Both the position numbers and the translations under genes were made by a program. Positions 10,281-51,633 of a stretch of DNA of 64,000 nucleotides are shown in pieces. The first letter of the stretch is position 1. Each line of letters opens with the position of its first letter. Source of the stretch: an uncultured Acidobacteriota bacterium. GTDB lineage: Bacteria > Acidobacteriota > UBA6911 > RPQK01 > JAPXNP01. The notes beneath the pieces were generated by a model that did no database searches, was not told the DNA's origin, and saw nothing but the letters and a program-made list of their open reading frames with translations. The stretch covers positions 36,923-100,922 of the forward strand of contig CAVRSV010000016.1 in assembly GCA_963723965.1 (NCBI GenBank), given 5' to 3'.

Positions 10281-12937
10281 CGGTAGGCTCCTTCCCGGGC
10301 GAGCAGAGCGACCGGAAATCGCTCGAGGAGCCGGCTCAGCGGGACATCACGGGACGTGAACCGGTCGCCCGTCAGGAGATTGATCCAGGTCCCTCCCGGT
10401 ATGGTCAGAACCGTGTCAGCCCAGTCCCCTCCCAGCCCGAGCACGAGGCGGGGAACCACCGTCACGGCACCGTCCCCCCGCTGAAAGGCCACTGCGTGCT
10501 CCTCTTTGCCGCCGCGGGCTCGAAGCGGTCGATAGCTTCCCTCCGGCCCGAACAGCGCCGGCTGCATCTTCCTGAAATGCAGCGCATGGCGGATGACCCA
10601 CAGCTTGGGCAGTCCCTCGTCGATGCCTGCCATCGCCTCGTCGACCGACATATCGCGGATTCGCCCGAGAAGCCGCCGTCGCAGCCCGAAGTCAACGGGC
10701 CGCCGATTATCCGGGTCGACCAGACTCAGATCCCAGAGCTCGGCGCCCTGGTAGATGTCGGGGACGCCGGGAGCCGTGAGCTTCAGCAGGGTCTGCGCCA
10801 GACTGTTGATCCGGCCGGGTGTCACCAGAGGCGTGACGAATTCCTCCAGCTGGTTGCGGAAGCTCTCATCCTCCATCGTGGCATGAATGAACTCCCTGAG
10901 GCCCGCTTCGAAGTCCTCGTTGTGCTGCGTCCAGGAGGTCCGCAGCTTGGCTTCCCGCACGGCCTTCTCCATGTACGCAGCCATCCGCTCCGGGTCGATC
11001 GGCCAGGCGCCGACCAACGTCTGGTAGAAGAGGTACTCGGAATTGCGGTCGGGGGCATCGCCGCGCCGGTACCGGGCATTGTGCGTCGCCCATTGTCGGA
11101 CCGCCTCGGACCAGCGGGCCGGAATCTCGGACAGCAGCGCCAGCCGGCTGCGGACATCCTCGCTCCGCTTGGTGTCGTGGGTCGAGGAGGCGAGCAGCGA
11201 CCGGGGATGCGTGGCGAGGGCCTCGCTGCAGAAGCGGTGAAACTCGCCGACGGTGATTCCGAAGCGGCCCGGGTCGCCTCCCACTTCGTTGAGGCTGATC
11301 AGCCGGTGAAAGCGATAGAAGGCCGTATCCTCCAGTCCCTTGGCCGTCGCGGCCCCGGTCAATTGCTGGAAGCGCATGGCCAGCTCCCCCTCGAGAGGTC
11401 CGGAGATCCGCAGCAGCAGCAGACTCTCGAGGAATCGGAACAGCTCCGGGTCCAGGTCGGGACGTTCCGCCATGGCATCCTCGATGGATTCGGCGACGTA
11501 GCGCCGGTCGCTTTCGGAGACGGCTCCGGCGGCAGGTCGGACGTAGGTCCGATATACGGGAAAGCAGGCCGCCGTCTGCAACAGGGCCTCGCGGAGCTCG
11601 TATCGTGTGTAGTCCCGGTGGCGCCGGTGCTGCTCGCAGATATCGACGAACAGGGCCGTCAGGCGGTTGAGTTCGCTGCCCAGCAGCTGATCGAGGACCA
11701 GCCGTTTGCAGGCGCGGACGAGCGTGGCGAAGTCCGACGTCTCATCGCTGAACTGCTCGTAGAGACGCGTCAGCAGCCCCTCGCCGTCGGGATCGATGAA
11801 CAGACCGTCGCAGACGTTCAGGAAATCGTATCCCGTTGTTCCGTCCACGGGCCAGTCCGCCGGCAGCCGCTCACCCGGGGAGAGGATCTTCTCGGCAACG
11901 ATCCAGGTATCCGGACATGCTTCGCGCAGGCGCCGGAAGTATTCTGCAGGGTTTCTCAGTCCGTCCGGATGATCGATTCGCAGGCCCTGAACCAGGCGCG
12001 CCCGCACCCATCCGAGGGGCAGCGCGTGGGTCGCCTCGAAGACCTCGGGATCCTCCACCCGCAGTCCCGCCAGATCATTGATGTCGAAGAACCTGCGGTA
12101 TCCGAGGTCCCGTCCTGCGGTCCGCCAGAAGGCGAGCCGGTAGTTTTGCCGGTCGATCAACCGATCCATCGCATCGGGGTCGCCGTTCAGCCCTTCGACC
12201 TCGTCCTCCAGCGCCCGTTCGCTGTTCCGGTCTTCGCGGCAGAGGCGGGCCAGAAGCCTCGCCAGCACCGCCTTGTCGCGGTGGCGCCGTTCGATGGCTT
12301 CACGCGCGGTGACGGTCGGCCGCGGCAGGCGGGCGTAGCTGTCGGCCAGAAAGCCCAGGAGCTCCGACCCGCAGGCCTCCGAGGCGCGGCTGAGGAGTTC
12401 GACGATGCTGGATGGGTCGATGGGAAAGGAATGCTCCTGATAGTGGAGCGTGAGCACCCCCTCGCGGTGGGAGAGCCGCAACTGGCCGTCCTCGAGGATA
12501 CGTCCGTAATGGTCGCCCAGTACCGGCAGGAGCACCTTGTTGGGCCAGCGGTCCTCCGAAGCCTCCCAGTCGACATCGAAGTAGGTCGCGAAACGGCTCG
12601 AAGGGCCGTTCTCGAGGACGTCCCACCACCAGGGGTTCTGCTGCCCGATGATGGCCATGTGGTTGGGGACCATATCGATCATCTGGCCGAGCCGAGCCTC
12701 TTCGAGTGACCGGCAGAGCGCCCCGTGGCCCGACGCGCCCCCGAGTTCCTCGTTGATACGGGTCGGATCGACGACGTCGTAGCCGTGGCTGCTTCCCGCG
12801 GTCGCCTGCAGGTAGGGAGAGGCATAGAAGTGGCTGACGCCGAGATCGGCCAGGTAGGTGGCGAGTTCCGCCGCCTGCTCGAAGCCGAAGCCGGGCTGCA
12901 GCTGAATCCGATAGGTGGCGGCGGGTTCAGGATTCAC
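10277..12937 (-). CDS. treY: Malto-oligosyltrehalose synthase; start probably GTG at 12937 (ORF track start 12991 overlaps glgX by 65 nt)
   Basis: YRIQLQPGFGFEQAAELATYLADLGVSHFYASPYLQATAGSSHGYDVVDP is the TreY N-terminal signature. In-frame GTG 8 nt upstream of the glgX stop. Confidence 0.88.
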   Translation of the reverse strand: MNPEPAATYRIQLQPGFGFEQAAELATYLADLGVSHFYASPYLQATAGSSHGYDVVDPTRINEELGGASGHGALCRSLEEARLGQMIDMVPNHMAIIGQQNPWWWDVLENGPSSRFATYFDVDWEASEDRWPNKVLLPVLGDHYGRILEDGQLRLSHREGVLTLHYQEHSFPIDPSSIVELLSRASEACGSELLGFLADSYARLPRPTVTAREAIERRHRDKAVLARLLARLCREDRNSERALEDEVEGLNGDPDAMDRLIDRQNYRLAFWRTAGRDLGYRRFFDINDLAGLRVEDPEVFEATHALPLGWVRARLVQGLRIDHPDGLRNPAEYFRRLREACPDTWIVAEKILSPGERLPADWPVDGTTGYDFLNVCDGLFIDPDGEGLLTRLYEQFSDETSDFATLVRACKRLVLDQLLGSELNRLTALFVDICEQHRRHRDYTRYELREALLQTAACFPVYRTYVRPAAGAVSESDRRYVAESIEDAMAERPDLDPELFRFLESLLLLRISGPLEGELAMRFQQLTGAATAKGLEDTAFYRFHRLISLNEVGGDPGRFGITVGEFHRFCSEALATHPRSLLASSTHDTKRSEDVRSRLALLSEIPARWSEAVRQWATHNARYRRGDAPDRNSEYLFYQTLVGAWPIDPERMAAYMEKAVREAKLRTSWTQHNEDFEAGLREFIHATMEDESFRNQLEEFVTPLVTPGRINSLAQTLLKLTAPGVPDIYQGAELWDLSLVDPDNRRPVDFGLRRRLLGRIRDMSVDEAMAGIDEGLPKLWVIRHALHFRKMQPALFGPEGSYRPLRARGGKEEHAVAFQRGDGAVTVVPRLVLGLGGDWADTVLTIPGGTWINLLTGDRFTSRDVPLSRLLERFPVALLAREGAYR

Positions 12938-38931: not shown

Positions 38932-40410
38932 TCAGCGACGTCGGAGCAGGGAGCTGCCGAGGAGGCTCTTCAGGAAGAAGAGCACTTCCGTGCGCGATTT
39001 GCGGTTTCCCTCCAGGCGGAATCGCATGGTGAAGCCGACCCAGGCGGCGTAGAGGAAGGCGTAGAACCGGTCCAGGGGAAGCCGCGTCAGGACCGGTTCC
39101 AGCGGTCTCAGAAAGGGGAAGGCGACGATCAGACCGAACAGTTTCTGCAGGCGCTCGTCGCGGCGCTTTTCCGCCGGATCGTCAAAGGCCAGGGCCGAGA
39201 AACTGTTGGTCCGGTCCGGCACAGGTCCGCCGGGCGCCAGATGGCCGCTCTGTTCCGAGTAGGCCGTCAGGTCCGTGCCCGGCAAGGGAAAGAAGAGCTG
39301 ACTCAGGGCCAGATCGGGCCGACAGCGCAGGTTCAGATCGAGGGTCCGACGGTCGATCTCGAGGGGGTGTTCGACGGGCAGGGCCAGCATGTTCTGCGTG
39401 ATGAAGCGGATTCCGTACCGGTGCAGCAGGCCGCTGACCCGGAGGAATTCCCGGTTGGAGATGTCCCGTCTCAGCAGATCGCGGGAGACCGTTTCGTCGC
39501 CCGTTTCGATTCCGAAGCAGACGACCCGGCAGCCCGCCTTCTGGAGGAGCCGGATCTTCTCCTCCGTCACCGTCTTGACGTGCACGTTGCAGTAGAAGGG
39601 AATGCCCACCTCGCGGGGAAAGCGCTCGGCGAAATCCTCCAGCCACGCCGTGTCGCACAGGGTGAAGATGTCGTCGTCGATGTAGGCGAACGAAGTCCCG
39701 TAGCGGGATTTCGTGAGGCGGACCTCCTCCATGAAATTGTCCACACTCCGGCGGCGGAGGATGCGCCCGTGATTGCAGAACAGGGCGTTGTACTTGTGGT
39801 TGAAGCAGTAGCTGCACCGATAGGGGCAGCCTCGCGAGGCGAAGAAGATGTGGCTGCGGTATTCCCGATGTAGCCGGGTACCCCGCGACATGAGCTCGCG
39901 GTCGGGGAAGGGGATCCGGTCCAGGTCCTCGACCAGCGGTGCGGGCGGGTTCCGGATCACCGCCCCGTCGACGTGAAAGTGCATTCCCTCGACCTGCGTG
40001 TAATCGCCGCCCTCGGCGAAGCGCTCCAGAAAGGCCGGGAAGCTGATGTCCCCCTCTCCGATGAGGATGGCATCCACGAAGGGCTGCGACGCCATCTCCG
40101 GCGAGAAGGTGGGATGGGGGCCCCCGAAGAGCAGAAAACACCCGGTGTCGCGGCGAAGCCGGCGAGCCAGATCCTGCAGGGCCGGATACTCGGGGGACAT
40201 GACACTGAAGCCCAGGATGTCCGGCCGGCTCCGGCGGATGCGCTCCAGCAGATCCCCGTACGAAGAATCGTCGCTGATCGCGAGATCCGTTTCCCAGCCC
40301 TGTGACCGGGCGAGGGACGAGAGATACATGACTCCCAGCCGTTCCATCGTGTAGAGATTCTTCACCACGAAGAGAAGGCGGCGTCCGACGGACGTGCGTT
40401 TCGCCTCCAT
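38932..40410 (-). CDS. B12-binding domain radical SAM protein (class B radical SAM, likely C-methyltransferase-type)
   Basis: N-terminal cobalamin-binding Rossmann-like region (DILGFSVMSPEY...LLFGGPHPT). Radical SAM CPYRCSYC. RBS GGAGG before ATG 40410. Confidence 0.85.
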   Translation of the reverse strand: MEAKRTSVGRRLLFVVKNLYTMERLGVMYLSSLARSQGWETDLAISDDSSYGDLLERIRRSRPDILGFSVMSPEYPALQDLARRLRRDTGCFLLFGGPHPTFSPEMASQPFVDAILIGEGDISFPAFLERFAEGGDYTQVEGMHFHVDGAVIRNPPAPLVEDLDRIPFPDRELMSRGTRLHREYRSHIFFASRGCPYRCSYCFNHKYNALFCNHGRILRRRSVDNFMEEVRLTKSRYGTSFAYIDDDIFTLCDTAWLEDFAERFPREVGIPFYCNVHVKTVTEEKIRLLQKAGCRVVCFGIETGDETVSRDLLRRDISNREFLRVSGLLHRYGIRFITQNMLALPVEHPLEIDRRTLDLNLRCRPDLALSQLFFPLPGTDLTAYSEQSGHLAPGGPVPDRTNSFSALAFDDPAEKRRDERLQKLFGLIVAFPFLRPLEPVLTRLPLDRFYAFLYAAWVGFTMRFRLEGNRKSRTEVLFFLKSLLGSSLLRRR

Positions 40411-41690
40411 CAAGGCCTCCCCTGCAGTGCGGCCCGGCCGGAAGGCCGGCAGAAGGCCCGGATCGCATCGATGTTCCGCTCGATTTCGGCGACGGGATAT
40501 CGCGGGTAGGTCGGAAGGAGGACGAGCGACTCGGAGGCCCGCCGGGCATTCGGGCAATCCCGTCGGAAGTCCCGGAACAGAGCGAGATCGGCGCAGTTCT
40601 TCAGGCGATGCGTCGCGATGTCACGGCCCTGGCGAAATGCCCAGTGCAGAAGCCCCCGACTCTCCCGGCACAGAATCGGGAAGTAGGGGAACACGGGGAG
40701 GGCATCGGGCTCCGGGGCGGGCAGCGTCAGACCTTCGAGGCCCGCGAGCCCGGCTCGATAGAGCTCGGCGTGGGATCGCCGGATTTCATTCTCTCTTTCC
40801 AGGCGTTCCAGGCCGCGCATCACCAGCCGCGTCTGGACACCGGTCATTCGACCCCCGTGCGAGGGAGGGACGGCTGTGAGACGGCGGACCGCGGATTCGG
40901 GATCGACGAGCCGGTTCAGGGTCCTGACTTGCCGCAAATGACCCCAGCGAAAGATGGGATAGGTCAGTCGGGTGAAGAGTGCCGGCCAGGTCGCGACGTC
41001 CGTCGCCAGCCCGAGACCGGTCAGTCCCAGGAGTCGCCAGAGGGGAAGAGGCGGCATCTGTTCGACTTCGCTTCGGATCCTTGCGGTCAGGTCCTGGGAC
41101 GGCGAGGCGAGGAGGCCCCCCCGCCAGCCGGTCAGATGTTTGTACATCCCGAAGCTGAAGACGCCCACCTCTCCCCAGGTGCCCAGGGATCGACCCCGTT
41201 CGGAGGCCCCGAAAGCCTGGGCCGCATCCTCGATCAGAGGCAGCCCGTGCTTCCGGCAAATCTCCCGGAAGCGCGCGGCCCCCGCCGTCTGGCCGAAGAG
41301 ATGCGTGATCAGAACGGCACCGGTCCGGGGGCCGAGGAGTCGCTCCACTTCGACGGGATCGATGTGGCAGCCCCCTGACACCACATCGGCGAAGACCGGA
41401 ACGGCGCCGGCGGCGATCACCAGACTCACGACGTCGGCGATGGTCAGAGGGGACAGGATGACCTCGCTCCCGGGGGGAACGAGCGCCCGCACCGCCAGGA
41501 AGATCCCCGTGCGTGCGGCCGGAACGCACAGGGCGTGCGGGGCTGGAAGGCGGTCTTCGAGGATCCCTTCGAGATGCGCCGCTTCGCGCGCCGGGTCCGG
41601 GCGCCGAAGCACGGCTGCCACGGGCAACCCGTAGTGGGAGCGGGAGGTATAGAGCCGGAAACGCGGGTGTGGGGTGGCCTGGCCGCTCAT
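40410..41690 (-). CDS. DegT/DnrJ/EryC1/StrS-family PLP-dependent sugar aminotransferase
   Basis: 426 aa. ...VILSPLTIADVVSLVIAAGAVPVFADV..., FSFGMYKHLT (PLP-Lys region). Overlaps flanking genes. Confidence 0.85.
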   Translation of the reverse strand: MSGQATPHPRFRLYTSRSHYGLPVAAVLRRPDPAREAAHLEGILEDRLPAPHALCVPAARTGIFLAVRALVPPGSEVILSPLTIADVVSLVIAAGAVPVFADVVSGGCHIDPVEVERLLGPRTGAVLITHLFGQTAGAARFREICRKHGLPLIEDAAQAFGASERGRSLGTWGEVGVFSFGMYKHLTGWRGGLLASPSQDLTARIRSEVEQMPPLPLWRLLGLTGLGLATDVATWPALFTRLTYPIFRWGHLRQVRTLNRLVDPESAVRRLTAVPPSHGGRMTGVQTRLVMRGLERLERENEIRRSHAELYRAGLAGLEGLTLPAPEPDALPVFPYFPILCRESRGLLHWAFRQGRDIATHRLKNCADLALFRDFRRDCPNARRASESLVLLPTYPRYPVAEIERNIDAIRAFCRPSGRAALQGRP

Positions 41691-43267
41691 CGGGGAACCG
41701 GGCAGAGCGAGGCGATGCGGTGGGCGTTCGCCATGACGGTCACCGCCGTGGGGATCGCCGGGATCGTCGGGAGAACGCTCGCATCGATCAAGTGGACGTG
41801 TTCGAACTCGGGCAGCCGCCCCAGGAGGTCGGTACGGGGAAAGGCCGGTTCTTCGCTCATGGGGAAGATGCCGCCGCTGTGATAGCCGCCGCCCGGGAGG
41901 TCGACGGTCGTGCGGGAAACCAGGGGCAGACCTCCGAGCTGGCGCCAGTGGCGGCGGAGCTTTCGCGCCACGCGGCGGGCGATCTCGTCGGACCGCGGAT
42001 GAGGCCTTCCCCGCAGGAGGATTCTGCGGGCGCCTCCCGATTCGAGAACCAGCTCGATCGACGATGAGACCTGGGAGGGCAGATAGCCGAAGATCGCCAG
42101 CAGACGCGCGACGGCCTTCCGAACGGCGAAGCCGGAGAAGGGCGCGAAGGGCCCCAGTTGCTGTCGGATCAGGTCCCGATAGAGTTCGTTGAAGGTGTAG
42201 ATCTGCAGGTGGAGGCGGCGGGGTTCGATCGACCGATCTTCGATTTCGACGAAGAGCTGGGCCAGGGTGTGCAGTTCCTCTTCGAAGACGCTCTCGGACC
42301 CGCGGAAGCGAAGGAAGGGAAGGGTGAAGTGATCGCTATGGAGGATGGTCAGCGGCCGATCGAAATGCTCCAGTGACTCGAGGACGATCCTGGCCGTCGA
42401 GAGCACGCCGGCCCCGACCAGGATCAGCGAGGCTTCGAATTGCTCGCGCCGGGCCTGCTCGAGGTTCCAGACCTGGACCTGCAGTCTGGCTCCCCGACCC
42501 TGGATCCGCTCGACGAGAAACCCGGGCCGGTAGTCGATCCGATCCGACTGCCTCAGGTCCTCGAGCGTTTTCGCCGCGCTGTAGACGCAGTCGTAGGGAC
42601 AGCCGAACAGGCACAGTCCGCAGTAGTGGCAACCGGTGTTGCCGGGGGAATGACCGTTGCGGACGGCCAGTTGCGATGGAGCGACGCGGATCCCGGCGCG
42701 TTTCAGGCGCTCGCCGTGGCGGCGCGCGTCGGCCAGCAGATCCCGGGCCTGGCGGCTCAATCGCAGTGAATCCGCGTTTCCCCCGTCTTCGCAGGGAGAC
42801 ACCGGAGAGGGATCGTCGAGCCCCATCAGGGTTCGGACCGCCGCGAAGTGGGGCCCGAGACCTTCCAGGTCCATGGGCCAGTCCATCAAATCGACAGGAT
42901 CGGGAGTCTTGAAGGAGGCGCCCCAGACGTTGCTGAATCCCCCGCGGGCGTAGGAGCGGGACATGGAAACACCGGTGCCCTCGAGCTCCCGATCGTCGGA
43001 CAGGGCGCGGAAGGGAAAATCGGAGCCGAACCAGCGTTTTCGCGGAATGCCGCAAATCGAGGGCGCATCCACCGTCTTGAGCCGGTGCAGAGCCTGCGGC
43101 TGCCAGTGATCGGCGGGCGTCTCCCCGAGCTCCCGCTTGAGTTCGACCGCTGCCGCGTCCGGACCGAGTCCCACATCCAGAAGCACCGGCCTGAAGCCCC
43201 GTCCGACCAGTGCGCTGGCCGCCGCTACGGAGCTCATTCCCGACCCGATGATGAAGATCCTACTCAC
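41687..43267 (-). CDS. FAD-dependent oxidoreductase (GMC-like) with Cys-rich CHYCGLCLFGCPYDC insert
   Basis: N-terminal dinucleotide-binding IIGSGMSSVAAASAL. Cys cluster CxxCGxCxxGCPxxC. Confidence 0.5.
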   Translation of the reverse strand: MSRIFIIGSGMSSVAAASALVGRGFRPVLLDVGLGPDAAAVELKRELGETPADHWQPQALHRLKTVDAPSICGIPRKRWFGSDFPFRALSDDRELEGTGVSMSRSYARGGFSNVWGASFKTPDPVDLMDWPMDLEGLGPHFAAVRTLMGLDDPSPVSPCEDGGNADSLRLSRQARDLLADARRHGERLKRAGIRVAPSQLAVRNGHSPGNTGCHYCGLCLFGCPYDCVYSAAKTLEDLRQSDRIDYRPGFLVERIQGRGARLQVQVWNLEQARREQFEASLILVGAGVLSTARIVLESLEHFDRPLTILHSDHFTLPFLRFRGSESVFEEELHTLAQLFVEIEDRSIEPRRLHLQIYTFNELYRDLIRQQLGPFAPFSGFAVRKAVARLLAIFGYLPSQVSSSIELVLESGGARRILLRGRPHPRSDEIARRVARKLRRHWRQLGGLPLVSRTTVDLPGGGYHSGGIFPMSEEPAFPRTDLLGRLPEFEHVHLIDASVLPTIPAIPTAVTVMANAHRIASLCPVPR

Positions 43268-43279
43268 AGCAACAACCGA

Positions 43280-44326
43280 TTAGTCTCGCAGCGCGAGCTC
43301 CCGGACATCGATTTCGAAACGTTTCAGCAATTCCGCCACCTCCCGCGTCGTTAGCCGCCGGCTGTTCTGGATCGCTCGCCGGCTTCGGAGCGTCGGTCGC
43401 AGCAGACGGGCGGCGCTCGCGTAGGACCATGCCAGGTTCACCAGTAACCGCAGACCGCCGTGCTCTCCGGCAAAGCGCCCCGCCGAGCCCGTTCGTTTCA
43501 AGGCGGCGTACGTGTGCCAGCCGTAGCGCCGAATCGTCCAGTAGGGATTCTGCAGCAGGATCGAGAGAGGAAAATTCTTCAACGCCAGCAGGATGCGATT
43601 GCGCTCCACGAGCATGACCTTGAGCGGGGAGTAGGCTCCCGCCGTCGCCGAGTGGCGGTGATATACGAGGGCAGCGGGGACAAACCAGGCCCGCCAACCC
43701 AGCAGCCGGGCCCGCATGCCGAGATCGGCATCGTCGCCATAGGCGAAAAAGGTCTCATCGAAGCCGCCCGTCTCCTCGATCAGGTCGCGATGATAGAGAG
43801 CGGCGCAGGCGTCGGGCCACAGGATCTCGCCCTCCTGGTCGTACTGGCCCCGGTCGATCTCCATGGTTCCGCGGCCGCGGTTCTGCCCGTCGCGGTAGAT
43901 GAGATGCCCGACCTTGTCGATCACGCCTGGAGGGTCGGTCAGCAGAATCTTGCTGCCGACCATACCGATCCGCTGCCGGCGGTCTCCCCGCCGGATCAAC
44001 TGCTCGAGCCAGTCGGGAGCCGCCACGGCGTCGTTGTTCAGCAGGGCGAACCACTGGCCTTCGGCCTGGCGAAAGGCCAGATTGTTGGCTTGGGTGAAGC
44101 CGGTATTGCGGTCGAGCCAGAGGACGCGGGCGTCGGATCGGCCCTCGACCCATCGGCGGAGGACGCCCACGGATCCGTCCGTGGACCCGTTGTCGACGAT
44201 GATGAACTCTCGGTGGGGCCAGGTCTGGCGATCGAGCGACGCCAGGCAGTCGGTGAGGAACTCCTCTCCGTTCCAGTTCACCACTACGACGCTGATCAGG
44301 TTCTGGGGTTCACCGCTGCTGGACAT
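43280..44326 (-). CDS. Family 2 glycosyltransferase
   Basis: ISVVVVNWNGEEFLTDCLASL...IVDNGSTDGS...DDADLGMRA (DxD and ED motifs). Start at the internal ATG. Confidence 0.85.
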   Translation of the reverse strand: MSSSGEPQNLISVVVVNWNGEEFLTDCLASLDRQTWPHREFIIVDNGSTDGSVGVLRRWVEGRSDARVLWLDRNTGFTQANNLAFRQAEGQWFALLNNDAVAAPDWLEQLIRRGDRRQRIGMVGSKILLTDPPGVIDKVGHLIYRDGQNRGRGTMEIDRGQYDQEGEILWPDACAALYHRDLIEETGGFDETFFAYGDDADLGMRARLLGWRAWFVPAALVYHRHSATAGAYSPLKVMLVERNRILLALKNFPLSILLQNPYWTIRRYGWHTYAALKRTGSAGRFAGEHGGLRLLVNLAWSYASAARLLRPTLRSRRAIQNSRRLTTREVAELLKRFEIDVRELALRD

Positions 44327-44453: not shown

Positions 44454-45485
44454 ATGGGACGAGTCAGGGCAGGCGAACGCTTTCACAGGCTGCGGCTTCT
44501 GCGCAGCTACCTCCGCGGCGACCTCGAAGCCCCCGAACTTCCGGCGACTGCCGTTCTGGGCGTCAGCAATCGCTGCAACCTCAATTGTCCGATGTGCCTG
44601 CGTTCCGTCCGCCGTTTTCCCGGTCGCCCCACGGATTTCGAGGCCTTTCGGAGTGTCCTCGACCAGGGGGCTCGGAGCTTCCGCTATGTGAGCCTCGACG
44701 GGCCCGGGGAACCTCTTCTGAATCCCGATTTGCACAGGATGGTGGCGTATTGCCGCTCGCTTGGGATCCGCGTCGTCTATTCGACCAACGCCACGCTGCT
44801 CGACGAGGTGGGCATCGATGCCGTCCTGGATTCGGGACTCGACCACATCATCTTCTCGGTCAACGGCGTGACGCCGGAGGTGTTCGAGAAGTACAACCGC
44901 GGTGCCGACTACGGGGAAGTGGTCCGCAGGATCCGCCGTTTCCTGAACCGAAAGCTCGAACGGCGTTCGCCGATCCTGGTCACCGTCCAGATGGTGCGCC
45001 TGCCCGATACGATTCCGCAGGCACGGCGCTTTCGTGAAGTGTGGCGGGTTCCGGGCGTGGATTCCATCCGCATCAAAGCCGATGTGGTGCGTCTCGACGG
45101 AGTCGCCGCCGACGAGCGAAAGGAGCCCGAGGAACCGGGGAATCGCTGTCCCCGACTGTGGGGCGGACCCCTTTACGTCAACTATGATGGCGACGTGTAC
45201 GGGTGTCCGGGAGTGCTGTTTCGCACGGAGGCCCTCGGGAACACGAACGAGCGTGCTCTGATGGAACTGTGGAATGGGGATCGGATGCGGGAGATGCGGC
45301 GGGCCCACGTGGAGGGTGACTTCTCGGCGGTGCCCGAGTGTGCCACCTGTCAATATCCACGTCCCCGAATTCCCCTGATTCTGGGGAGCTTCCTGTTCGA
45401 TCCTTTTCTGGTGGGTCGCGTGATCCCGTTTTTCGAAAAGCTGGCTTTTTTCCGAAGGCTGCCCTTGTATGAACGTTTCGACTGA
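44454..45485 (+). CDS. Radical SAM protein with C-terminal SPASM/twitch domain
   Basis: CNLNCPMC (CxxxCxxC). C-terminal Cys array CPRLWGGP...CPGV...CATCQY. Confidence 0.8.
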   Translation: MGRVRAGERFHRLRLLRSYLRGDLEAPELPATAVLGVSNRCNLNCPMCLRSVRRFPGRPTDFEAFRSVLDQGARSFRYVSLDGPGEPLLNPDLHRMVAYCRSLGIRVVYSTNATLLDEVGIDAVLDSGLDHIIFSVNGVTPEVFEKYNRGADYGEVVRRIRRFLNRKLERRSPILVTVQMVRLPDTIPQARRFREVWRVPGVDSIRIKADVVRLDGVAADERKEPEEPGNRCPRLWGGPLYVNYDGDVYGCPGVLFRTEALGNTNERALMELWNGDRMREMRRAHVEGDFSAVPECATCQYPRPRIPLILGSFLFDPFLVGRVIPFFEKLAFFRRLPLYERFD

Positions 45486-48400
45486 GCGGGCTTCCGGCAG
45501 ATCGCCGGCGATCCTGCTGGAGGGCCAGAAACGGAGACAGATCGAGTACCACGAGCGGGCGCACTATGACGCCCGCCGCCCCCGGATGGTCGACAACCGG
45601 CATCCCCTCGTGGCGTGGTTGAACTGGTATCGACTCCGGACGGCCCTCGCTTTGATCGGCGAGCCCCTCGAGGGACGATCCGTCCTCTCCGTATGCGGCG
45701 GAGACGGTGAGGAGGCGGATTTCCTCGAGAGGCAGGGGGCAAAGACGACGATGATCGATCTCTCCGAAGCCGGGGTTCGGGCTGCTGGCCTCCGCAACCC
45801 CGCGGTGCGGAGCCTACGTATGGATGGCGAGGCATTGTCCTTTCCGGATCGATCGTTTGACTGGGTTCTGGTCCGAGATGGACTGCATCACCTGGCCCGG
45901 CCTCTGAAGGGGCTCTACGAGATGGAGCGGGTGGCGCGGCGGGGTTTCGTTCTCCTGGAGGGGCAGGACTCAGGGCTCGTCCGCCTGCTTGTGCGGCTCG
46001 GCCTCGGTGAGGACTGGGACCCGGCCGGCGGTTACGTGTATCGTTTCTCGAGGCGGGAGCTCCTCAAGGTTCTCCGTGCCGTCCAGACGATCGAGAGGTG
46101 GCGGATCTCCACCGCCTGGCTCCCGCCGGGAAGTGATCTGCTGGCATATTTTCCGGTGGTGCGACGCCTCATCTACCCCGCTATTGACAACCGGATCGCC
46201 CGGCCTCTGCTGACGTCTCCGTCGGGACGCCGGTACCTGGGGATGCTCTTTCGTTTCGTGCAGGCCGTGGTCGGGCGCTGGGGGAACAGCCTGATCGTCG
46301 TCGCCTGGAAGAAGCCGGCGGCCGAAACCCCGGCAACGAGCGGGGAGCGGCGACTTCCAGCGGCCGGGACGCGGACCCGAAAGGCCGGGCACGTCGTGAA
46401 AGCCCGGACGTCGGCAGAAACCGGGCCGCTCGGGCAGAGGTCCGGGAATCTGCCAGTGACTTGGATCGTTCTTGGGCTCCTCGCGATCGCGATCAACATG
46501 CCTTTTCTGGGGCAGGCCTTCCACATCGACGACTCGGTCTTCCTCAAGGTCGCCGAAAACACCTCCCGCGACCCCCTTTTCGCCCAGGATCTGCCGATCC
46601 TGTTCGAGGGCGTCTCGGTCCCGGATCTGGCATCGGCCGAGCATCCGCCGTTGATAGCCTGGTACATGGCTCTTGCCGCGAGGTTGGGCGGAGGCTTCTC
46701 GGAGGTGGTCCTGCACACCGCTTTCCTGCTGTTTCCCGCCATCCTGGCCGTGGCCACATACTCGCTGGCTCGGCGATTCACGAGCAGCCCGGCGATTGCC
46801 ACGGTGGCGCTCCTCGTGTCGCCGGTAGTCTTCGTGATGTCTCATACCCTGATGACCGACCTGCCCCTGATGGCTCTGTGGACGGCCTCGGTGGCCCTGT
46901 TCGTCCATGGCCTCGACTCGGGGCGGATGCGCTGGGCCTGGATCGGCGGGATTACAGCGGCGCTGGCCACTTTTGCGTCCTACGCCGGACTCTGTTTGGT
47001 ACCGCTCCTGGCGGCTTATTCCGTGTTGAAGAAGCGGCCGGCTGGTTTGCTGCCGTCGATGCTGCCCGTACCGGCATTCGGCGCGTGGCTGGCCCTGAAC
47101 GCCGTGCACTACGGGCGCTTTACTCCAGGTCCTCTGCTGAATCACTACCTCTTCGTGGAGAAGGTGCTGGCACCCGGCCTGATCGGAGACAAGCTGATCT
47201 ATGCGGTGGTCGTTCTGGGCGGGGCGACGCTCTTCCCGCTGGCGCTCGTGGCGCTGGGAACGGTGCGGAGGATCGTCGCGGGCTTTCTGCTCGCCGTTGC
47301 CCTGGTCTTCATCACCGAGGTCCGCGCCTACGATCTTCCGGCGGCGGCCTGCTTCGTGGGGCTGTTCAGCGCGGGGTTCGTGGCGCTGTGGGAGATCTTC
47401 CGGAGTTTCGGGCGCTCTCTGCGCTCGCTGCGGAGCCTGCCGAGCGAGGCTGCCGACGACCTGTTCCTCGGCCTCTGGTTTACGGGAGCGCTGGCTTTTT
47501 GTGTCCTCGTCTATCTGACTGGGGCCGCTCGATATCTACTGCCGGCAGTGCCGCCATTCATTCTGATGGTGGTTCGCCGGGCCGAGCTGCGGACGGGAGG
47601 CCGCTTGCTCCACCTTGCGGTCCCGGCGTTGTTCGCCACCGCAATCATGGCCCTGGCTGCGGCCACGGCGGATTTCCAGTTCGCACGGATCTACCAGGAG
47701 TTTGCGGGATCGCTTGCAGCCTCTGCAGCCTCCCGGGAGCCGGGACGTCGAGTCTGGTTCACCGGTGAATGGGGCTTCCGCGCGTACCTGGAACGATTGG
47801 GCGGGCGGGAACTGGGACGGCGGGATCCCCGTCCCCGACCCGGTGATCGCCTGATCGTTCCCACGCTGGCGACGCCTTATCCCACGTTGTTCAGCGATCG
47901 CCTGGGACTCGACTGCATCGTGCTGGTCGCTCCGAGCCGGGTGTCCTTCGAGCTGCCGGCGGTGCAGGCCGGGGATGTTCTGTCCTTCACAGTGGGGATG
48001 CCCCTTCACGATGTGAGCGACGGGCTGGATCTGGGCGTTCTCTTCGTTTCGGGGAAGGATCGGGAGTGGATCCGGCGGGAGCGCCTCGAGCCACAGTCAG
48101 GTCGACGCTGGACCGAGTGGAACCTGCCACTGGATCCTTGGAAGGGACGGAAGGGAACGATCGTCTTCTCGGCCCGCGTGGGATCGTCCGGCAGGGCCGA
48201 CGGCGACTGGGTGGCCCTGGCCCGGGCCCGGATCGAGGGCGCCCCGACGGCAGGCGGCCCGGCGCGCTTCGATTTCCTGCAACATTTCGAGCGGGCGTCC
48301 ATCGACCCTGAGCCCGGGACGGATTACCACACTCCCGGCAATGTCCCGGTCTTCCCCTACCGGGCCTGGCTGGAGCAGGAGCCGGCCAAGGTCTTACTGG

Positions 48401-48597
48401 ATCGACGGGACTTCAGTCCGTCCCTGGGTATCCGGTTGCTGGACGCCGGGTCGCACGCCGGGTTCTGGGGGATGCACTGGGGCATGCTTCCCTTTGCGTT
48501 CGCCGACGATTGGACTGCTTTGGAGTCCATTTCGATCTACCGCATCACCCGGCAGGTGGATGGGTACGGGGAGACGAACCCGGCTTGGGGACAGTGA
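45469..48597 (+). CDS. Fusion protein: class I SAM-dependent methyltransferase domain + GT-C family (PMT_2/ArnT-like, GT39/GT83-type) membrane glycosyltransferase + about 340-aa C-terminal soluble domain
   Basis: Residues about 60-200 carry the MT fold (VLSVCGGDGEEADFL...DWVLVRDGLHHL). Residues about 330-700 have more than 10 TM helices and begin with the GT-C-type motif PFLGQAFHIDDSVFLKVAE. 1042 aa, continuous ORF. Confidence 0.72.
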   Translation: MNVSTERASGRSPAILLEGQKRRQIEYHERAHYDARRPRMVDNRHPLVAWLNWYRLRTALALIGEPLEGRSVLSVCGGDGEEADFLERQGAKTTMIDLSEAGVRAAGLRNPAVRSLRMDGEALSFPDRSFDWVLVRDGLHHLARPLKGLYEMERVARRGFVLLEGQDSGLVRLLVRLGLGEDWDPAGGYVYRFSRRELLKVLRAVQTIERWRISTAWLPPGSDLLAYFPVVRRLIYPAIDNRIARPLLTSPSGRRYLGMLFRFVQAVVGRWGNSLIVVAWKKPAAETPATSGERRLPAAGTRTRKAGHVVKARTSAETGPLGQRSGNLPVTWIVLGLLAIAINMPFLGQAFHIDDSVFLKVAENTSRDPLFAQDLPILFEGVSVPDLASAEHPPLIAWYMALAARLGGGFSEVVLHTAFLLFPAILAVATYSLARRFTSSPAIATVALLVSPVVFVMSHTLMTDLPLMALWTASVALFVHGLDSGRMRWAWIGGITAALATFASYAGLCLVPLLAAYSVLKKRPAGLLPSMLPVPAFGAWLALNAVHYGRFTPGPLLNHYLFVEKVLAPGLIGDKLIYAVVVLGGATLFPLALVALGTVRRIVAGFLLAVALVFITEVRAYDLPAAACFVGLFSAGFVALWEIFRSFGRSLRSLRSLPSEAADDLFLGLWFTGALAFCVLVYLTGAARYLLPAVPPFILMVVRRAELRTGGRLLHLAVPALFATAIMALAAATADFQFARIYQEFAGSLAASAASREPGRRVWFTGEWGFRAYLERLGGRELGRRDPRPRPGDRLIVPTLATPYPTLFSDRLGLDCIVLVAPSRVSFELPAVQAGDVLSFTVGMPLHDVSDGLDLGVLFVSGKDREWIRRERLEPQSGRRWTEWNLPLDPWKGRKGTIVFSARVGSSGRADGDWVALARARIEGAPTAGGPARFDFLQHFERASIDPEPGTDYHTPGNVPVFPYRAWLEQEPAKVLLDRRDFSPSLGIRLLDAGSHAGFWGMHWGMLPFAFADDWTALESISIYRITRQVDGYGETNPAWGQ

Positions 48598-49000
48598 AGA
48601 TGATCTGAGATTTACGATTTACGATTTACGATTTGGGGGCGGACCGGGAGCTGGAAGGCGTGTCTTCCCAATTCACCGGGGCCCTGGAATTCGCCTCCGA
48701 CGCCGCAGGCGCCCTTGGGGCGCGGGAGCTTGCTCCCGCTGTCGAGCCGCCCGGGACGCCCATCCCGACACGCATCGCCGGCTCGCCGACCGACTCCCGC
48801 CGAAGCCCGGGAGTACCCACGACCGAGGCCCCTCCACCGAAAGCGGCAGCAAGCTACCGCAGTCCAAGGCGGCTTCGCCGCGGTGGCGGAGCAGGTCAAT
48901 CCCAAAGCGGCTTCGCCGCGGTGGCGGAGCAGGTTAATTCCAAGGCGGCTTGGCCGCGCTGCCACAACAGTTCAATTCAAACCGTCTGCGCCGCGCGCTT
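48598..49000. repeat. GATTTAC 7-mer micro-tandem plus Family-C multi-hairpin repeat with an internal 40-bp duplication
   Basis: gatctgagatttacgatttacgatttacgatttgg. The C-unit ends with aggcggcttcgccgcggtggcggagcaggt repeated twice. Confidence 0.75.
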
Positions 49001-49071
49001 CCTTCCCGACGGCGCTTGGCGATGTGTCTTCTTGCATATGTCCTGCATCCGTCGGACAATCTTCGTCGGCG

Positions 49072-49260
49072 ATGGCAAAGTTCCGTCGAGTCGCGGGCAC
49101 CTGTCCTCACTGCCGGCAGAAAACCCTCCGTCTCCAGTCCAGAGACGGGTGGGATTTCGAGTATACCGTTGTCTCCTCCGTCACCTTGTTCCTGCTCTAT
49201 CTGGTTAATTGGTTTCCGCCGATTGGCTGGGCTCCCTTGTACCGGAAGGAGTTCCGGTAG
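49072..49260 (+). CDS. Hypothetical small protein with N-terminal CxxC...CxxC-like zinc ribbon and one TM helix
   Basis: 62 aa, MAKFRRVAGTCPHCRQKTLRLQSRDGWDFEYTVVSSVTLFLLYLVNWFPPIGWAPLYRKEFR. GC3-biased codons. No clear RBS. Lies between repeat copies. Confidence 0.3.
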   Translation: MAKFRRVAGTCPHCRQKTLRLQSRDGWDFEYTVVSSVTLFLLYLVNWFPPIGWAPLYRKEFR

Positions 49261-49289
49261 CTCTGTGGCAACTGCGGGCGCGTTTATCC

Positions 49290-49450
49290 CTGCGACGGGA
49301 CCCCTGGAAGGAATGCAAAGCCGCCGCCCACATAGAATCCCTTTGCGGCGTTGCGTACTTTGCGACTTGGCGTGAGATCAAGCTACCGAAACCACTCTCC
49401 AGTGGGAGCGGACGCACCAGACCAACGCCACGGCCATTTGGGCAACACGC
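49290..49450 (+). repeat. Family-B repeat copy 5 (right TIR catttgggcaacacgcccccg present)
   Basis: ...catagaatccctttgcggcgttgcgtactttgcgacttggcgtgagatcaagctaccgaaaccactctccagtgggagcggacgcacc...atttgggcaacacgccccc. Confidence 0.7.
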
Positions 49451-49590
49451 CCCCGCATTTCGAGTTCCCGAGAACCGTCACGCGCGAATCGTTATAATTC
49501 CGTGCAGAGCGCCCACGCAGGGCAAAATCGTCAATCTCAAAAGGCAAGTCTCAAATCCTGTACCGTCTTGCGCCGGATGGAGGAGGCCAG

Positions 49591-50394
49591 ATGACCACCC
49601 CGGTTCTTCGGGAGCAGATCGCTGCCGCAGAGGCCTACGAGGCGTTGCACGTTCCGAGCCTCTTCCGGCAATGGCCTCCTCGGGTCCTCGCCGCCGTCAC
49701 CGTCGGACCGGGAGATCGGGTGCTCGATGTGGCCTGTGGCACGGGCGTCCTGGCGCGTGAAGCGCGCCGACGGCTGGGCCCGTCGGGCCTTGTTGCGGCG
49801 ATCGATCCGGACCCGGGTATGCTGACGGTGGCGCGCCGGCTAGATCCTTCGGTCGCGTGGCGGCAGGGGAAGGCCGAGTCGTTGCCCTTTCGGGACCAGG
49901 AGTTCCATGCGGTGGTCAGCCAGTTCGGCCTGATGTACTTCTCCGACGGGCGCCGTTCCCTTCGAGAAATGCTCCGGGTGTTGGCTCCCGGAGGTCGCCT
50001 CGCCGTGGCGGTCTGGGACAGTCTCGAGAATTCCGGCGCCTATCCGATCGAGGTCGATCTGCTCGATCGCCTCGCCGGCTCGCAAGCAGCCGACGCTCTG
50101 CGCGCCCCGTTCGTGCTGGGGGTGCGGGAGGAACTGGCCGATCTGTTCGAAGGTGCGGGTGTGGGGCAGGTGAACATCGAGACCCACCCGGGCCTGGCGC
50201 GATTCCCGAGCATCCGGTCCCTGGTGGAGGCCGATCTCCGCGGTTGGCTCCCGGTCATGGGGGTAGCGCTGGAAGAATCTCAAATCCGCCGGATCCTGGC
50301 CGAGGCCGAGAGCGCACTGGAACAATACGTGACCAGCGAGGGAGAAGTTGTCTTCGATGCCCCCGCCCACATCGTCACGGGCCGCCGACTTTGA
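49591..50394 (+). CDS. Class I SAM-dependent methyltransferase (UbiE/COQ5-like)
   Basis: VLDVACGTGVLA (motif I), ...FHAVVSQFGLMYF, LAPGGRLAV. Confidence 0.8.
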   Translation: MTTPVLREQIAAAEAYEALHVPSLFRQWPPRVLAAVTVGPGDRVLDVACGTGVLAREARRRLGPSGLVAAIDPDPGMLTVARRLDPSVAWRQGKAESLPFRDQEFHAVVSQFGLMYFSDGRRSLREMLRVLAPGGRLAVAVWDSLENSGAYPIEVDLLDRLAGSQAADALRAPFVLGVREELADLFEGAGVGQVNIETHPGLARFPSIRSLVEADLRGWLPVMGVALEESQIRRILAEAESALEQYVTSEGEVVFDAPAHIVTGRRL

Positions 50395-50751: not shown

Positions 50752-51633
50752 TCAGGCGGACGGAGAACTGCCGAGCTCCGCCTGCTTCCTGGCCACGACT
50801 GCGAATTCGCCCGATCCCGGGCCGTACGGGGCTCCCGCGACGTCCAGGTAGAGCTCCTCCACCGGCAGACCGGCCTCCAGGAGCTCCCGCTTCAGCTCTT
50901 CGGGCGTAAAGTACTGGAACCAGTTGTAGACGGTTCGGATGCGGTCCGCTTCCACGATGGTGTACTTCTCCAGCACGACCCTGTCCGCGGGGTACTTGAA
51001 GGTGTTCTGGAAGCAGAAGTAGGGGCGTGGCGACCAGAACCCTTCGAAGGTGTTGACGCCGTATTTTCGGGTCTCAAGAACCCGGTCGAATTCCTCCATC
51101 GAGTAGACATCGAGCAGGACCGATCCGCCCGGCCTCAGAATCGTGTGAAACGTGGTCAGGAGCCGGCTTCGCTGGTCCGGGCTCAGGGCGCAGAAGTCGC
51201 ACATGATCATCAGGACGAGATCGAAGCGTGTCTCCGTGACGAAGTCGAGGTAGTTCTGCTGGACGTACTGGATCTCCAGTTTCTCCCGGCCCGCGGCCTG
51301 TCGCGCAAAATCGATCGATCGGGCCGAGAAATCGATGCCCGTAACCTCGGCGCCGCGCCGCGCCAGGCGGGTGGTGTAGAGGCCGGGACCGCAGCCGAAA
51401 TCAGCGACCTTCGTCCCCTTGGCGATGTCGAACCGGGACACGATCCAGTCGACGGAGCGATCGATGAATCGGGCATTCCGCGAAGAGACATCGCCCGTCT
51501 GGTCGAGGTGAAACTCCAGCATGCGGGCGGAAGTATGCTCATCCGTCCACAGGTCGTCGGCAGTGTAGAGCTCGAACGGCCGGGGCTGCTCGTTGATCTT
51601 CTGCAGATCCTGAAACAATCGGTTGTTTTTCAT
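50752..51633 (-). CDS. Class I SAM-dependent methyltransferase
   Basis: VADFGCGPGLYTTRLARRGAEVTGIDFS (motif I), LRPGGSVLLD. Confidence 0.8.
   Translation of the reverse strand: MKNNRLFQDLQKINEQPRPFELYTADDLWTDEHTSARMLEFHLDQTGDVSSRNARFIDRSVDWIVSRFDIAKGTKVADFGCGPGLYTTRLARRGAEVTGIDFSARSIDFARQAAGREKLEIQYVQQNYLDFVTETRFDLVLMIMCDFCALSPDQRSRLLTTFHTILRPGGSVLLDVYSMEEFDRVLETRKYGVNTFEGFWSPRPYFCFQNTFKYPADRVVLEKYTIVEADRIRTVYNWFQYFTPEELKRELLEAGLPVEELYLDVAGAPYGPGSGEFAVVARKQAELGSSPSA

Follow-up and report, generated by a model that had tools for sequence, protein, structure and literature searches.

A 1042-residue reading frame in a 64,000-nucleotide stretch of DNA from an uncultured Acidobacteriota bacterium (assembly GCA_963723965.1, contig CAVRSV010000016.1; the whole stretch is called the window, and its own numbering is used unless another contig is named) encodes an S-adenosylmethionine (SAM)-dependent methyltransferase (MT) followed by a membrane glycosyltransferase of the GT-C type. 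This open reading frame (ORF) occupies 45469..48597 on the plus strand, begins with ATG, and has no internal stop; the exact protein (P0278) is found in a public collection, on a 296-kb contig. The frame stays open only because of one base, the C at position 46341. Quite probably, this one inserted C joins two genes that are normally separate, in a fusion that is private to this assembly and is not a conserved architecture. A first-pass annotation of the window had proposed that the fusion physically couples methylation with glycosyl transfer. As an evolved arrangement this is contradicted by the relatives, which are all split, and by two conspecific assemblies in which a TGA stop and a GTG start mark the junction.

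The closest homologs of the whole 1042-residue protein are only ∼720 residues long, share 44-62% identity with it, and align only from about residue 320 onward. A nearer relative, P0001, is 99% identical to the window protein and comes from a different metagenome-assembled genome (MAG), GCA_049282195.1, where it lies on the contig termed L003. On L003 the MT is encoded by a separate gene, with a product of 309 residues, followed by the GT-C gene. A base-by-base comparison of the window with L003 over 3.5 kb gives 98.8% nucleotide identity, with 41 substitutions and exactly one indel: the C at 46341 on the plus strand. A third assembly, L032, from another sample and 96.6% identical at the nucleotide level, also lacks this C. 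At this site the window reads GAG-C-GGGGAG (GAGCGGGGAG), whereas both relatives read GAGGGGGAG.

In L003 and L032 the MT ends with ...PERPGTS and a TGA codon that overlaps the GTG start of the GT-C gene as GTGA. This ancestral junction is retained in the window at 46396..46399 (+). The GTG at 46396-46398 corresponds to the native GT-C start and is codon 310 of the fusion, and the TGA at 46397-46399, the MT stop of the split allele, is now out of frame. A Shine-Dalgarno-like motif, GAAAGG, lies 11-16 nt upstream of the junction. Upstream of its start, the GT-C frame stays open over ∼200 nt (on L003, from position 1382), so a +1 insertion anywhere in this stretch would yield a fusion. An alignment of 37 MT sequences places the end of the conserved MT body at residue 283 (...GRWGNSLIVVAWKKP), and the insertion falls eight codons beyond it, in codon 291. 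Thus, only the variable, non-conserved tail of the MT is replaced.

Searches for the same fusion in other organisms point the same way. The 120 MT homologs listed (55-69% identity) are all stand-alone proteins of ∼260-320 residues, none of them fused to a GT-C, and the 64 relatives found in a profile search with the GT-C part are all at most 800 residues long and carry no MT domain. A HMMER scan of 1.84 billion representatives returned 4917 hits, and among the best 150 of these not one covers both halves of the query. The GT-C hits in this set match the query only from about residue 313-345, or later in a few fragments, and the match begins within ∼40 residues of the hit's own N terminus in all but three, where it begins by residue 100. 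Among 59 loci fetched, 13 are distinct tandem loci, and in these the MT and GT-C are always separate ORFs. A DNA pattern for the junction that accepts both alleles has no match in the Joint Genome Institute metagenomes, and we found no description in the literature of this gene cluster or of an MT-GT-C fusion. The relatives in these searches, from the 120 MT homologs and 64 GT-C relatives to the best 150 representatives, thus keep the two proteins apart, which was named in the first-pass annotation, together with a stop at the junction, as the observation that would speak against its proposal.

Two merged ORFs of a different kind occur among the fetched loci, on L054 (492-1820, +) and L056 (1-1293, +). 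In both, MT residues 17-95 (64-65% identity) are joined directly to the C-terminal half of the GT-C, represented by residues 369-730 of the GT-C part at 51% identity, with an apparent internal deletion of ∼1.9 kb. These chimeras are probably decayed remnants of the gene pair.

Whether the extra C exists in a cell or only in the assembly can be judged in part from the company it keeps. We lean toward a genuine, recent strain variant. Five indels separate the window from a sister MAG over ∼11.5 kb. Besides the C at 46341 these comprise four in a further 8 kb of shared sequence (L059), all non-coding: three in the gene-free interval at 48.6-49.0 kb and one just upstream of the start of a DUF4349 gene. 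All five leave the genes unbroken, as would be expected of real mutations filtered by selection. A random indel, by contrast, would hit the ∼80-nt zone that permits a clean fusion only ∼2.6% of the time, as calculated for the 3.1-kb gene pair. The genes of the window cluster are all full length when compared with L001 (3245-12178), the closest non-conspecific ortholog cluster, which has 62-80% amino acid identity and the same flanking histidine kinase, and no other frameshift is seen in ∼10 kb.

The alternative is an assembly or consensus error, in which the true sequence is GAGGGGGAG, the genes are two ordinary overlapping genes, and the fused ORF is absent from nature. We regard this as the less probable account, though one of some weight. 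Both conspecific assemblies carry the split allele, and, as a point against a genuine variant, the site adjoins a run of G residues where an indel could arise during assembly or polishing. The 296-kb contig may indicate a long-read assembly, and related long-read contigs such as L004 are full of frameshifts. The change itself, however, is a C inserted inside the G-run, which does not alter the length of the run; the neighboring genes are intact, unlike those on L004, and the other four indels are all non-coding.

Two further observations concern the DNA behind the GT-C gene. The ∼1 kb that follows it (48600-49590) contains no recognizable gene, Pfam hit, or Rfam hit. One of the three indels located there is a 38-nt insertion in the window relative to the sister MAG (∼48869-48906), flanked by the direct repeat GCGGCTTC.

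Both halves of the fused product appear complete, and the first-pass annotation named them correctly, as borne out by Pfam, AlphaFold2 (AF2) models, and the ORF reading; the MT and GT-C parts were aligned and modeled separately. The class I SAM-dependent MT spans residues 1-283 (45469..46317, +). Pfam Methyltransf_11, Methyltransf_23, and Methyltransf_25 match residues 56-204 with E values of 1e-12 to 3e-10 and respective scores of 48.6 bits (cut-off 21.2), 42.9 bits (cut-off 27), and 41.3 bits (cut-off 27). The motifs quoted for it are present at residues 72-82 (VLSVCGGDGEE), 97-102 (DLSEAG), and 131-142 (DWVLVRDGLHHL), and coincide with columns that are invariant in the MT alignment, which combines the window protein with 36 stand-alone orthologs of 55-69% identity: Gly78, Asp79, Gly80, and Glu82 (CGGDGEE), Asp97, Arg136, and Gly138-Leu142. 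The glycine-rich motif I is therefore in place, and so is the acidic residue that ends β2. The AF2 model (predicted local distance difference test score, pLDDT, 87) displays the canonical class I Rossmann-like α/β fold, and Foldseek finds more than 1000 PDB methyltransferase matches to it at E <1e-3. A C-terminal extension of ∼120 residues (165-283) is specific to the family.

AtmM and RebM lead the matches to the MT (by sequence the best is 6uv6, with E 2e-5; by structure the best has E 3e-12 at 23% identity). Both are class I sugar O-methyltransferases, which act on a sugar once it has been joined to an aglycone. Identity to them is low, and they share neither the C-terminal extension nor the N-terminal helix of the MT; headgroup and small-molecule N-methyltransferases score close behind. 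A second comparison is offered by P0010 (L060:8001-9803), a natural 600-residue GT2-methyltransferase fusion whose MT domain is of the same family as that of the window (38% identity over 243 residues) and keeps the GRWGNSL..VAWK signature. Here too, an MT is covalently linked to a glycosyltransferase, but the partner is a cytoplasmic GT-A enzyme (GT2) at the N terminus rather than a C-terminal GT-C, and the genomic context differs: L060 is a polysaccharide cluster of the Wzy type, in which several GT4 genes and an epimerase also occur. As P0010 is fused to a GT2 in such a cluster, it ties the MT family to glycan assembly on lipid carriers.

Residues 284-329 (46318..46455, +) form the linker of the fused product, which from codon 291 onward is the part of the GT-C frame that lies upstream and normally goes untranslated. 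The linker is ∼46 residues long, basic (8 Lys plus Arg versus 3 Asp plus Glu), and modeled with low pLDDT. A basic, poorly ordered segment fits a cytoplasmic GT-C N terminus, which would place the fused MT on that side of the membrane, in agreement with the topology foreseen for it. With its N terminus facing the cytoplasm, the GT-C should therefore tolerate the fusion topologically.

The GT-C transmembrane domain covers residues 330-731 (46456..47661, +) with ∼11 transmembrane helices by hydropathy and AF2, consistent with the ten or more expected and within the 7-13 of GT-C enzymes; by its PMT_2 match the domain is GT39/GT83-like. Pfam PMT_2 (PF13231) matches residues 392-532 with 50 bits against a cut-off of 26.1; in NCBIfam only methyltransferase models match the fused protein, and the ArnT model is not listed at E values up to 0.01. 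The AF2 model built from a 51-sequence alignment (pLDDT 94.2; predicted template modeling score, pTM, 0.91) confirms the GT-C fold, as its best 36 Foldseek matches in the PDB are all GT-C enzymes at a probability of 1.00. They include EmbA/B/C, ArnT (5ezm), AglB, PglB, STT3, ALG9/12, AftD, and Pmt. Alignment conservation singles out Asp354-Asp355 (46528..46533, +), in the first extracytoplasmic loop after transmembrane helix 1, as the candidate catalytic pair. Both are invariant among nine orthologs, and in the 51-sequence alignment Asp42 (Asp354 of the fusion) is invariant and Asp43 nearly so. The loop is acidic, and an Asp at this first-loop position is the catalytic residue of solved GT-C enzymes (PMC11127046). 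The remainder of the protein, residues 732-1042 (47662..48594, +), is a soluble, β-rich domain by AF2 secondary structure, with a predicted periplasmic location. The first-pass annotation had recognized this domain and slightly overstated its size, at 340 residues instead of ∼310.

A link between methylation and glycosyl transfer is supported, by the conserved arrangement of the separate genes rather than by the fusion. In the 13 distinct tandem loci the MT gene precedes the GT-C gene and shares its strand. Five of their junctions are 4-nt ATGA or GTGA overlaps, three are 28-nt overlaps, and in the rest the two genes lie 9-37 nt apart or have another gene between them; in L008 a second radical SAM/SPASM gene (10810-11880) is inserted between the two. 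Judged from its geometry, the stop-start arrangement is of the classical type that would allow translational coupling. A variation on the pair is seen in L005 (7396-12295), where a second, 491-residue PMT_2 GT-C is divergently encoded beside the MT gene together with a second radical SAM/SPASM gene.

The gene pair belongs to a divergent cluster. On the plus strand it is preceded by a radical SAM/SPASM enzyme (44454..45485), whose gene overlaps the MT start by 17 nt, as first noted; the same overlap is called in L003 and L004. The minus strand encodes a GT2 glycosyltransferase (43280..44326), a GMC-like flavin adenine dinucleotide (FAD) oxidoreductase (41687..43267), a DegT/DnrJ/EryC1-family sugar aminotransferase (40410..41690), and a B12-binding radical SAM enzyme (38932..40557). 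The GT2 has 348 residues from its likely start, in an ORF that is open to 44428, and no transmembrane segment. The oxidoreductase has an N-terminal GxGxxG motif, a weak GMC_oxred_C match, and no solved relative detectable by sequence. The aminotransferase is assigned by domain-model matches, with ArnB among its best NCBIfam matches (97 bits). The coordinates of the B12-binding enzyme are those of the longest ORF, and its true start is probably slightly downstream. A core of GT2, oxidoreductase, DegT, radical SAM/SPASM, and GT-C genes is conserved across Acidobacteriota MAGs, with or without the B12-binding radical SAM gene, and most of them also have the MT. A scan for promoters and terminators gave sites no more numerous than chance, and Rfam finds nothing in the window.

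Signal peptides are absent from the tailoring enzymes, as are convincing membrane-spanning segments, so these enzymes are probably cytoplasmic. The radical SAM/SPASM enzyme ends in a hydrophobic, amphipathic tail, RIPLILGSFLFDPFLVGRVIPFFEKLAFFRRLP (residues ∼300-343; 45370-45485), that could tether it to the membrane, as would suit a lipid-linked substrate. Its best PDB match is PqqE, and the sugar-acting enzymes DesII and BlsE match about as well. Two known systems were considered for the cluster and rejected on scores: a mycofactocin-like system, suggested by the best NCBIfam names of the radical SAM, GT2, and GMC-like proteins (MftF, 89.5 bits versus a cut-off of 280; MftC, 55 versus 265; MftG, 24.8 versus 400), and, for the B12-binding enzyme, the hopanoid side-chain enzymes HpnJ and HpnR, which score far below their cut-offs.

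More distant loci retain parts of this gene set. In L011 (4101-14204), which holds a more distant member of the GT-C clade, an S-adenosylhomocysteine hydrolase gene is followed by a dense operon with genes for a rhomboid protease, radical SAM/SPASM, B12-binding radical SAM, radical SAM/SPASM, and B12-binding radical SAM enzymes, the GT-C, a second GT-C (PMT_2), and a GT2. Radical SAM partners similar to those of L011 recur in L010-L022, and the GT-C clade keeps its radical SAM/SPASM partners even where sugar-amination genes are absent. Downstream of the cluster, the window has two further class I SAM methyltransferase genes, at 49591-50394 (+) and 50752-51633 (-), and both of them are conserved in L059 from the sister MAG.

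By analogy with the Arn, Gtr, and decaprenylphosphoryl arabinose (DPA) pathways, the likely role of the cluster is to tailor a lipid-linked amino sugar in the cytoplasm, with methylation as one of the steps, before the GT-C would transfer it to a periplasmic glycan. In the most economical form of this model, the GT2 would activate and attach a sugar, the flavoprotein would oxidize it, and the DegT enzyme would transaminate it. Radical SAM modification and methylation by the MT would follow at the cytoplasmic face, probably on a polyprenyl-phosphate carrier. Once flipped across the membrane, the modified sugar would be passed by the GT-C to an envelope glycan that the C-terminal domain holds. 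The general framework of a lipid-linked donor, auxiliary tailoring enzymes, and a GT-C that bears a carbohydrate-binding module (CBM) has been described, and the CBM-bearing GT-Cs EmbC, AftD, and GT136 bind acceptor glycans (PMC11127046).

Several observations weigh against this model. The GT2 scores only 19.6 bits with the ArnC model, against a cut-off of 529, and its PDB hits are generic GT-A enzymes, with GtrB and dolichol-phosphate mannose synthase (DPMS) absent among them. A flippase gene (GtrA, SMR, or MATE-like) is not recognizable in the flanks of the cluster, and none is listed in L001, L002, or L005. The C-terminal domain is a β-sandwich whose similarity to CBM51 is weak (Foldseek match 2vmg, E 0.017, target-normalized TM-score 0.58, root-mean-square deviation 2.4 over 111 columns), and the domain has no Pfam or NCBIfam hit. 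Finally, the otherwise syntenic L001 lacks an MT gene, and its GT-C gene comes directly after the radical SAM/SPASM gene. The MT is thus dispensable for GT-C function and has been lost or gained within this clade. The full combination, a genuine extra C, an active fused protein, and a cluster that is an uncharacterized Acidobacteriota pathway tailoring a lipid-linked sugar for a CBM-bearing GT-C, is rather unlikely.

A different substrate would change the picture. The pair could act on a protein or peptide, with the radical SAM/SPASM enzyme maturing a peptide that the GT-C O-glycosylates in the periplasm, while the MT modifies either of the two, peptide or sugar. Peptide maturases are common among SPASM enzymes, as the match to PqqE recalls, the PMT_2 family includes protein O-mannosyltransferases, and radical SAM/SPASM partners persist in the GT-C clade where sugar amination is missing. 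Nevertheless, a peptide substrate is unlikely. No precursor peptide or RiPP (ribosomally made, post-translationally modified peptide) recognition protein is identified, and the DegT, FAD oxidoreductase, and GT2 genes point to sugar chemistry, as do the comparable matches of the radical SAM/SPASM enzyme to DesII and BlsE and the resemblance of the C-terminal domain to a CBM.

The effect of the fusion on its own product bears on two further accounts. The insertion may be real but harmful, an early stage of decay in which the fusion misfolds or loses MT activity and the GT-C is made only from internal GTG starts. An MT that is dispensable in L001, the decayed appearance of the deletion chimeras on L054 and L056, and the retention of internal GTG starts with a Shine-Dalgarno-like motif would all suit such a course. 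It is nonetheless quite improbable, given that every invariant residue is kept in both domains, the sole change lies in a non-conserved tail, no further lesions are visible, and the substitutions relative to L003 fall mostly at third codon positions (20 of 33 within the ORF). That the fusion is an evolved, conserved bifunctional enzyme channeling a methylated substrate directly into the GT-C is very unlikely: the domains are intact, the topology with a basic cytoplasmic linker ahead of transmembrane helix 1 is compatible, and the genes are conserved neighbors, but no full-length fusion is found elsewhere among the homologs and loci searched, strains at 96.6-98.8% identity are split, and the linker is merely the out-of-frame 5′ leader of the GT-C gene.

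A fusion that rests on one base and that no relative shares should not be listed as a new architecture for a bifunctional enzyme. If the inserted C is real and the fused protein active, the population carries a natural pair of split and fused alleles of the MT and GT-C. The locus also illustrates how fusions may originate: with an overlapping GTGA and an open upstream frame, one +1 insertion in a non-conserved tail turns coupling covalent and leaves the domains unharmed. The conserved pairing of MT and GT-C, together with the GT2, flavoprotein, DegT, and radical SAM genes, marks an unstudied system, probably for envelope-glycan modification, that is widespread in Acidobacteriota of soil, sediment, and groundwater. 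To our knowledge, radical SAM chemistry on polyprenyl-linked sugar donors is undescribed. The cluster appears to be an uncharacterized variant of GT-C-based envelope glycosylation and may merit biochemical work.

Among known systems, the nearest parallels are the three-component extracytoplasmic glycosylation systems, namely GtrA/GtrB/Gtr*, Citrobacter youngae ORF15/ORF14/ORF12 (the founder of GT136), and the mycobacterial DPA pathway with DprE1/E2 and the Emb/Aft enzymes (PMC11127046). As in these, the GT-C spans the membrane with ∼11 helices, has an Asp in its first periplasmic loop, and bears an additional β-sandwich or CBM-like domain in the periplasm, and the cluster includes a GT2 and cytoplasmic auxiliary enzymes, here the FAD oxidoreductase, that could tailor the donor. 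On the other hand, the window locus has no nearby flippase, and its GT2 lacks transmembrane helices and specific similarity to GtrB, ArnC, or DPMS. Its predicted tailoring set is also much larger, adding a pyridoxal phosphate-dependent aminotransferase, one or two radical SAM enzymes, and the MT.

The ArnB/ArnC/ArnT pathway, which adds 4-amino-4-deoxy-L-arabinose (Ara4N) to lipid A, likewise combines a DegT-family aminotransferase, a GT2, and a PMT_2-type GT-C, and ArnT (5ezm) is a top structural match of the window GT-C. None of the proteins reaches an Arn equivalog cut-off, however, and ArnA, ArnD, ArnE, and ArnF are missing. Oxidation in the window system would fall to a GMC-like flavoprotein instead of an SDR enzyme, and the window GT-C carries an extra C-terminal domain of ∼310 residues that ArnT does not have.

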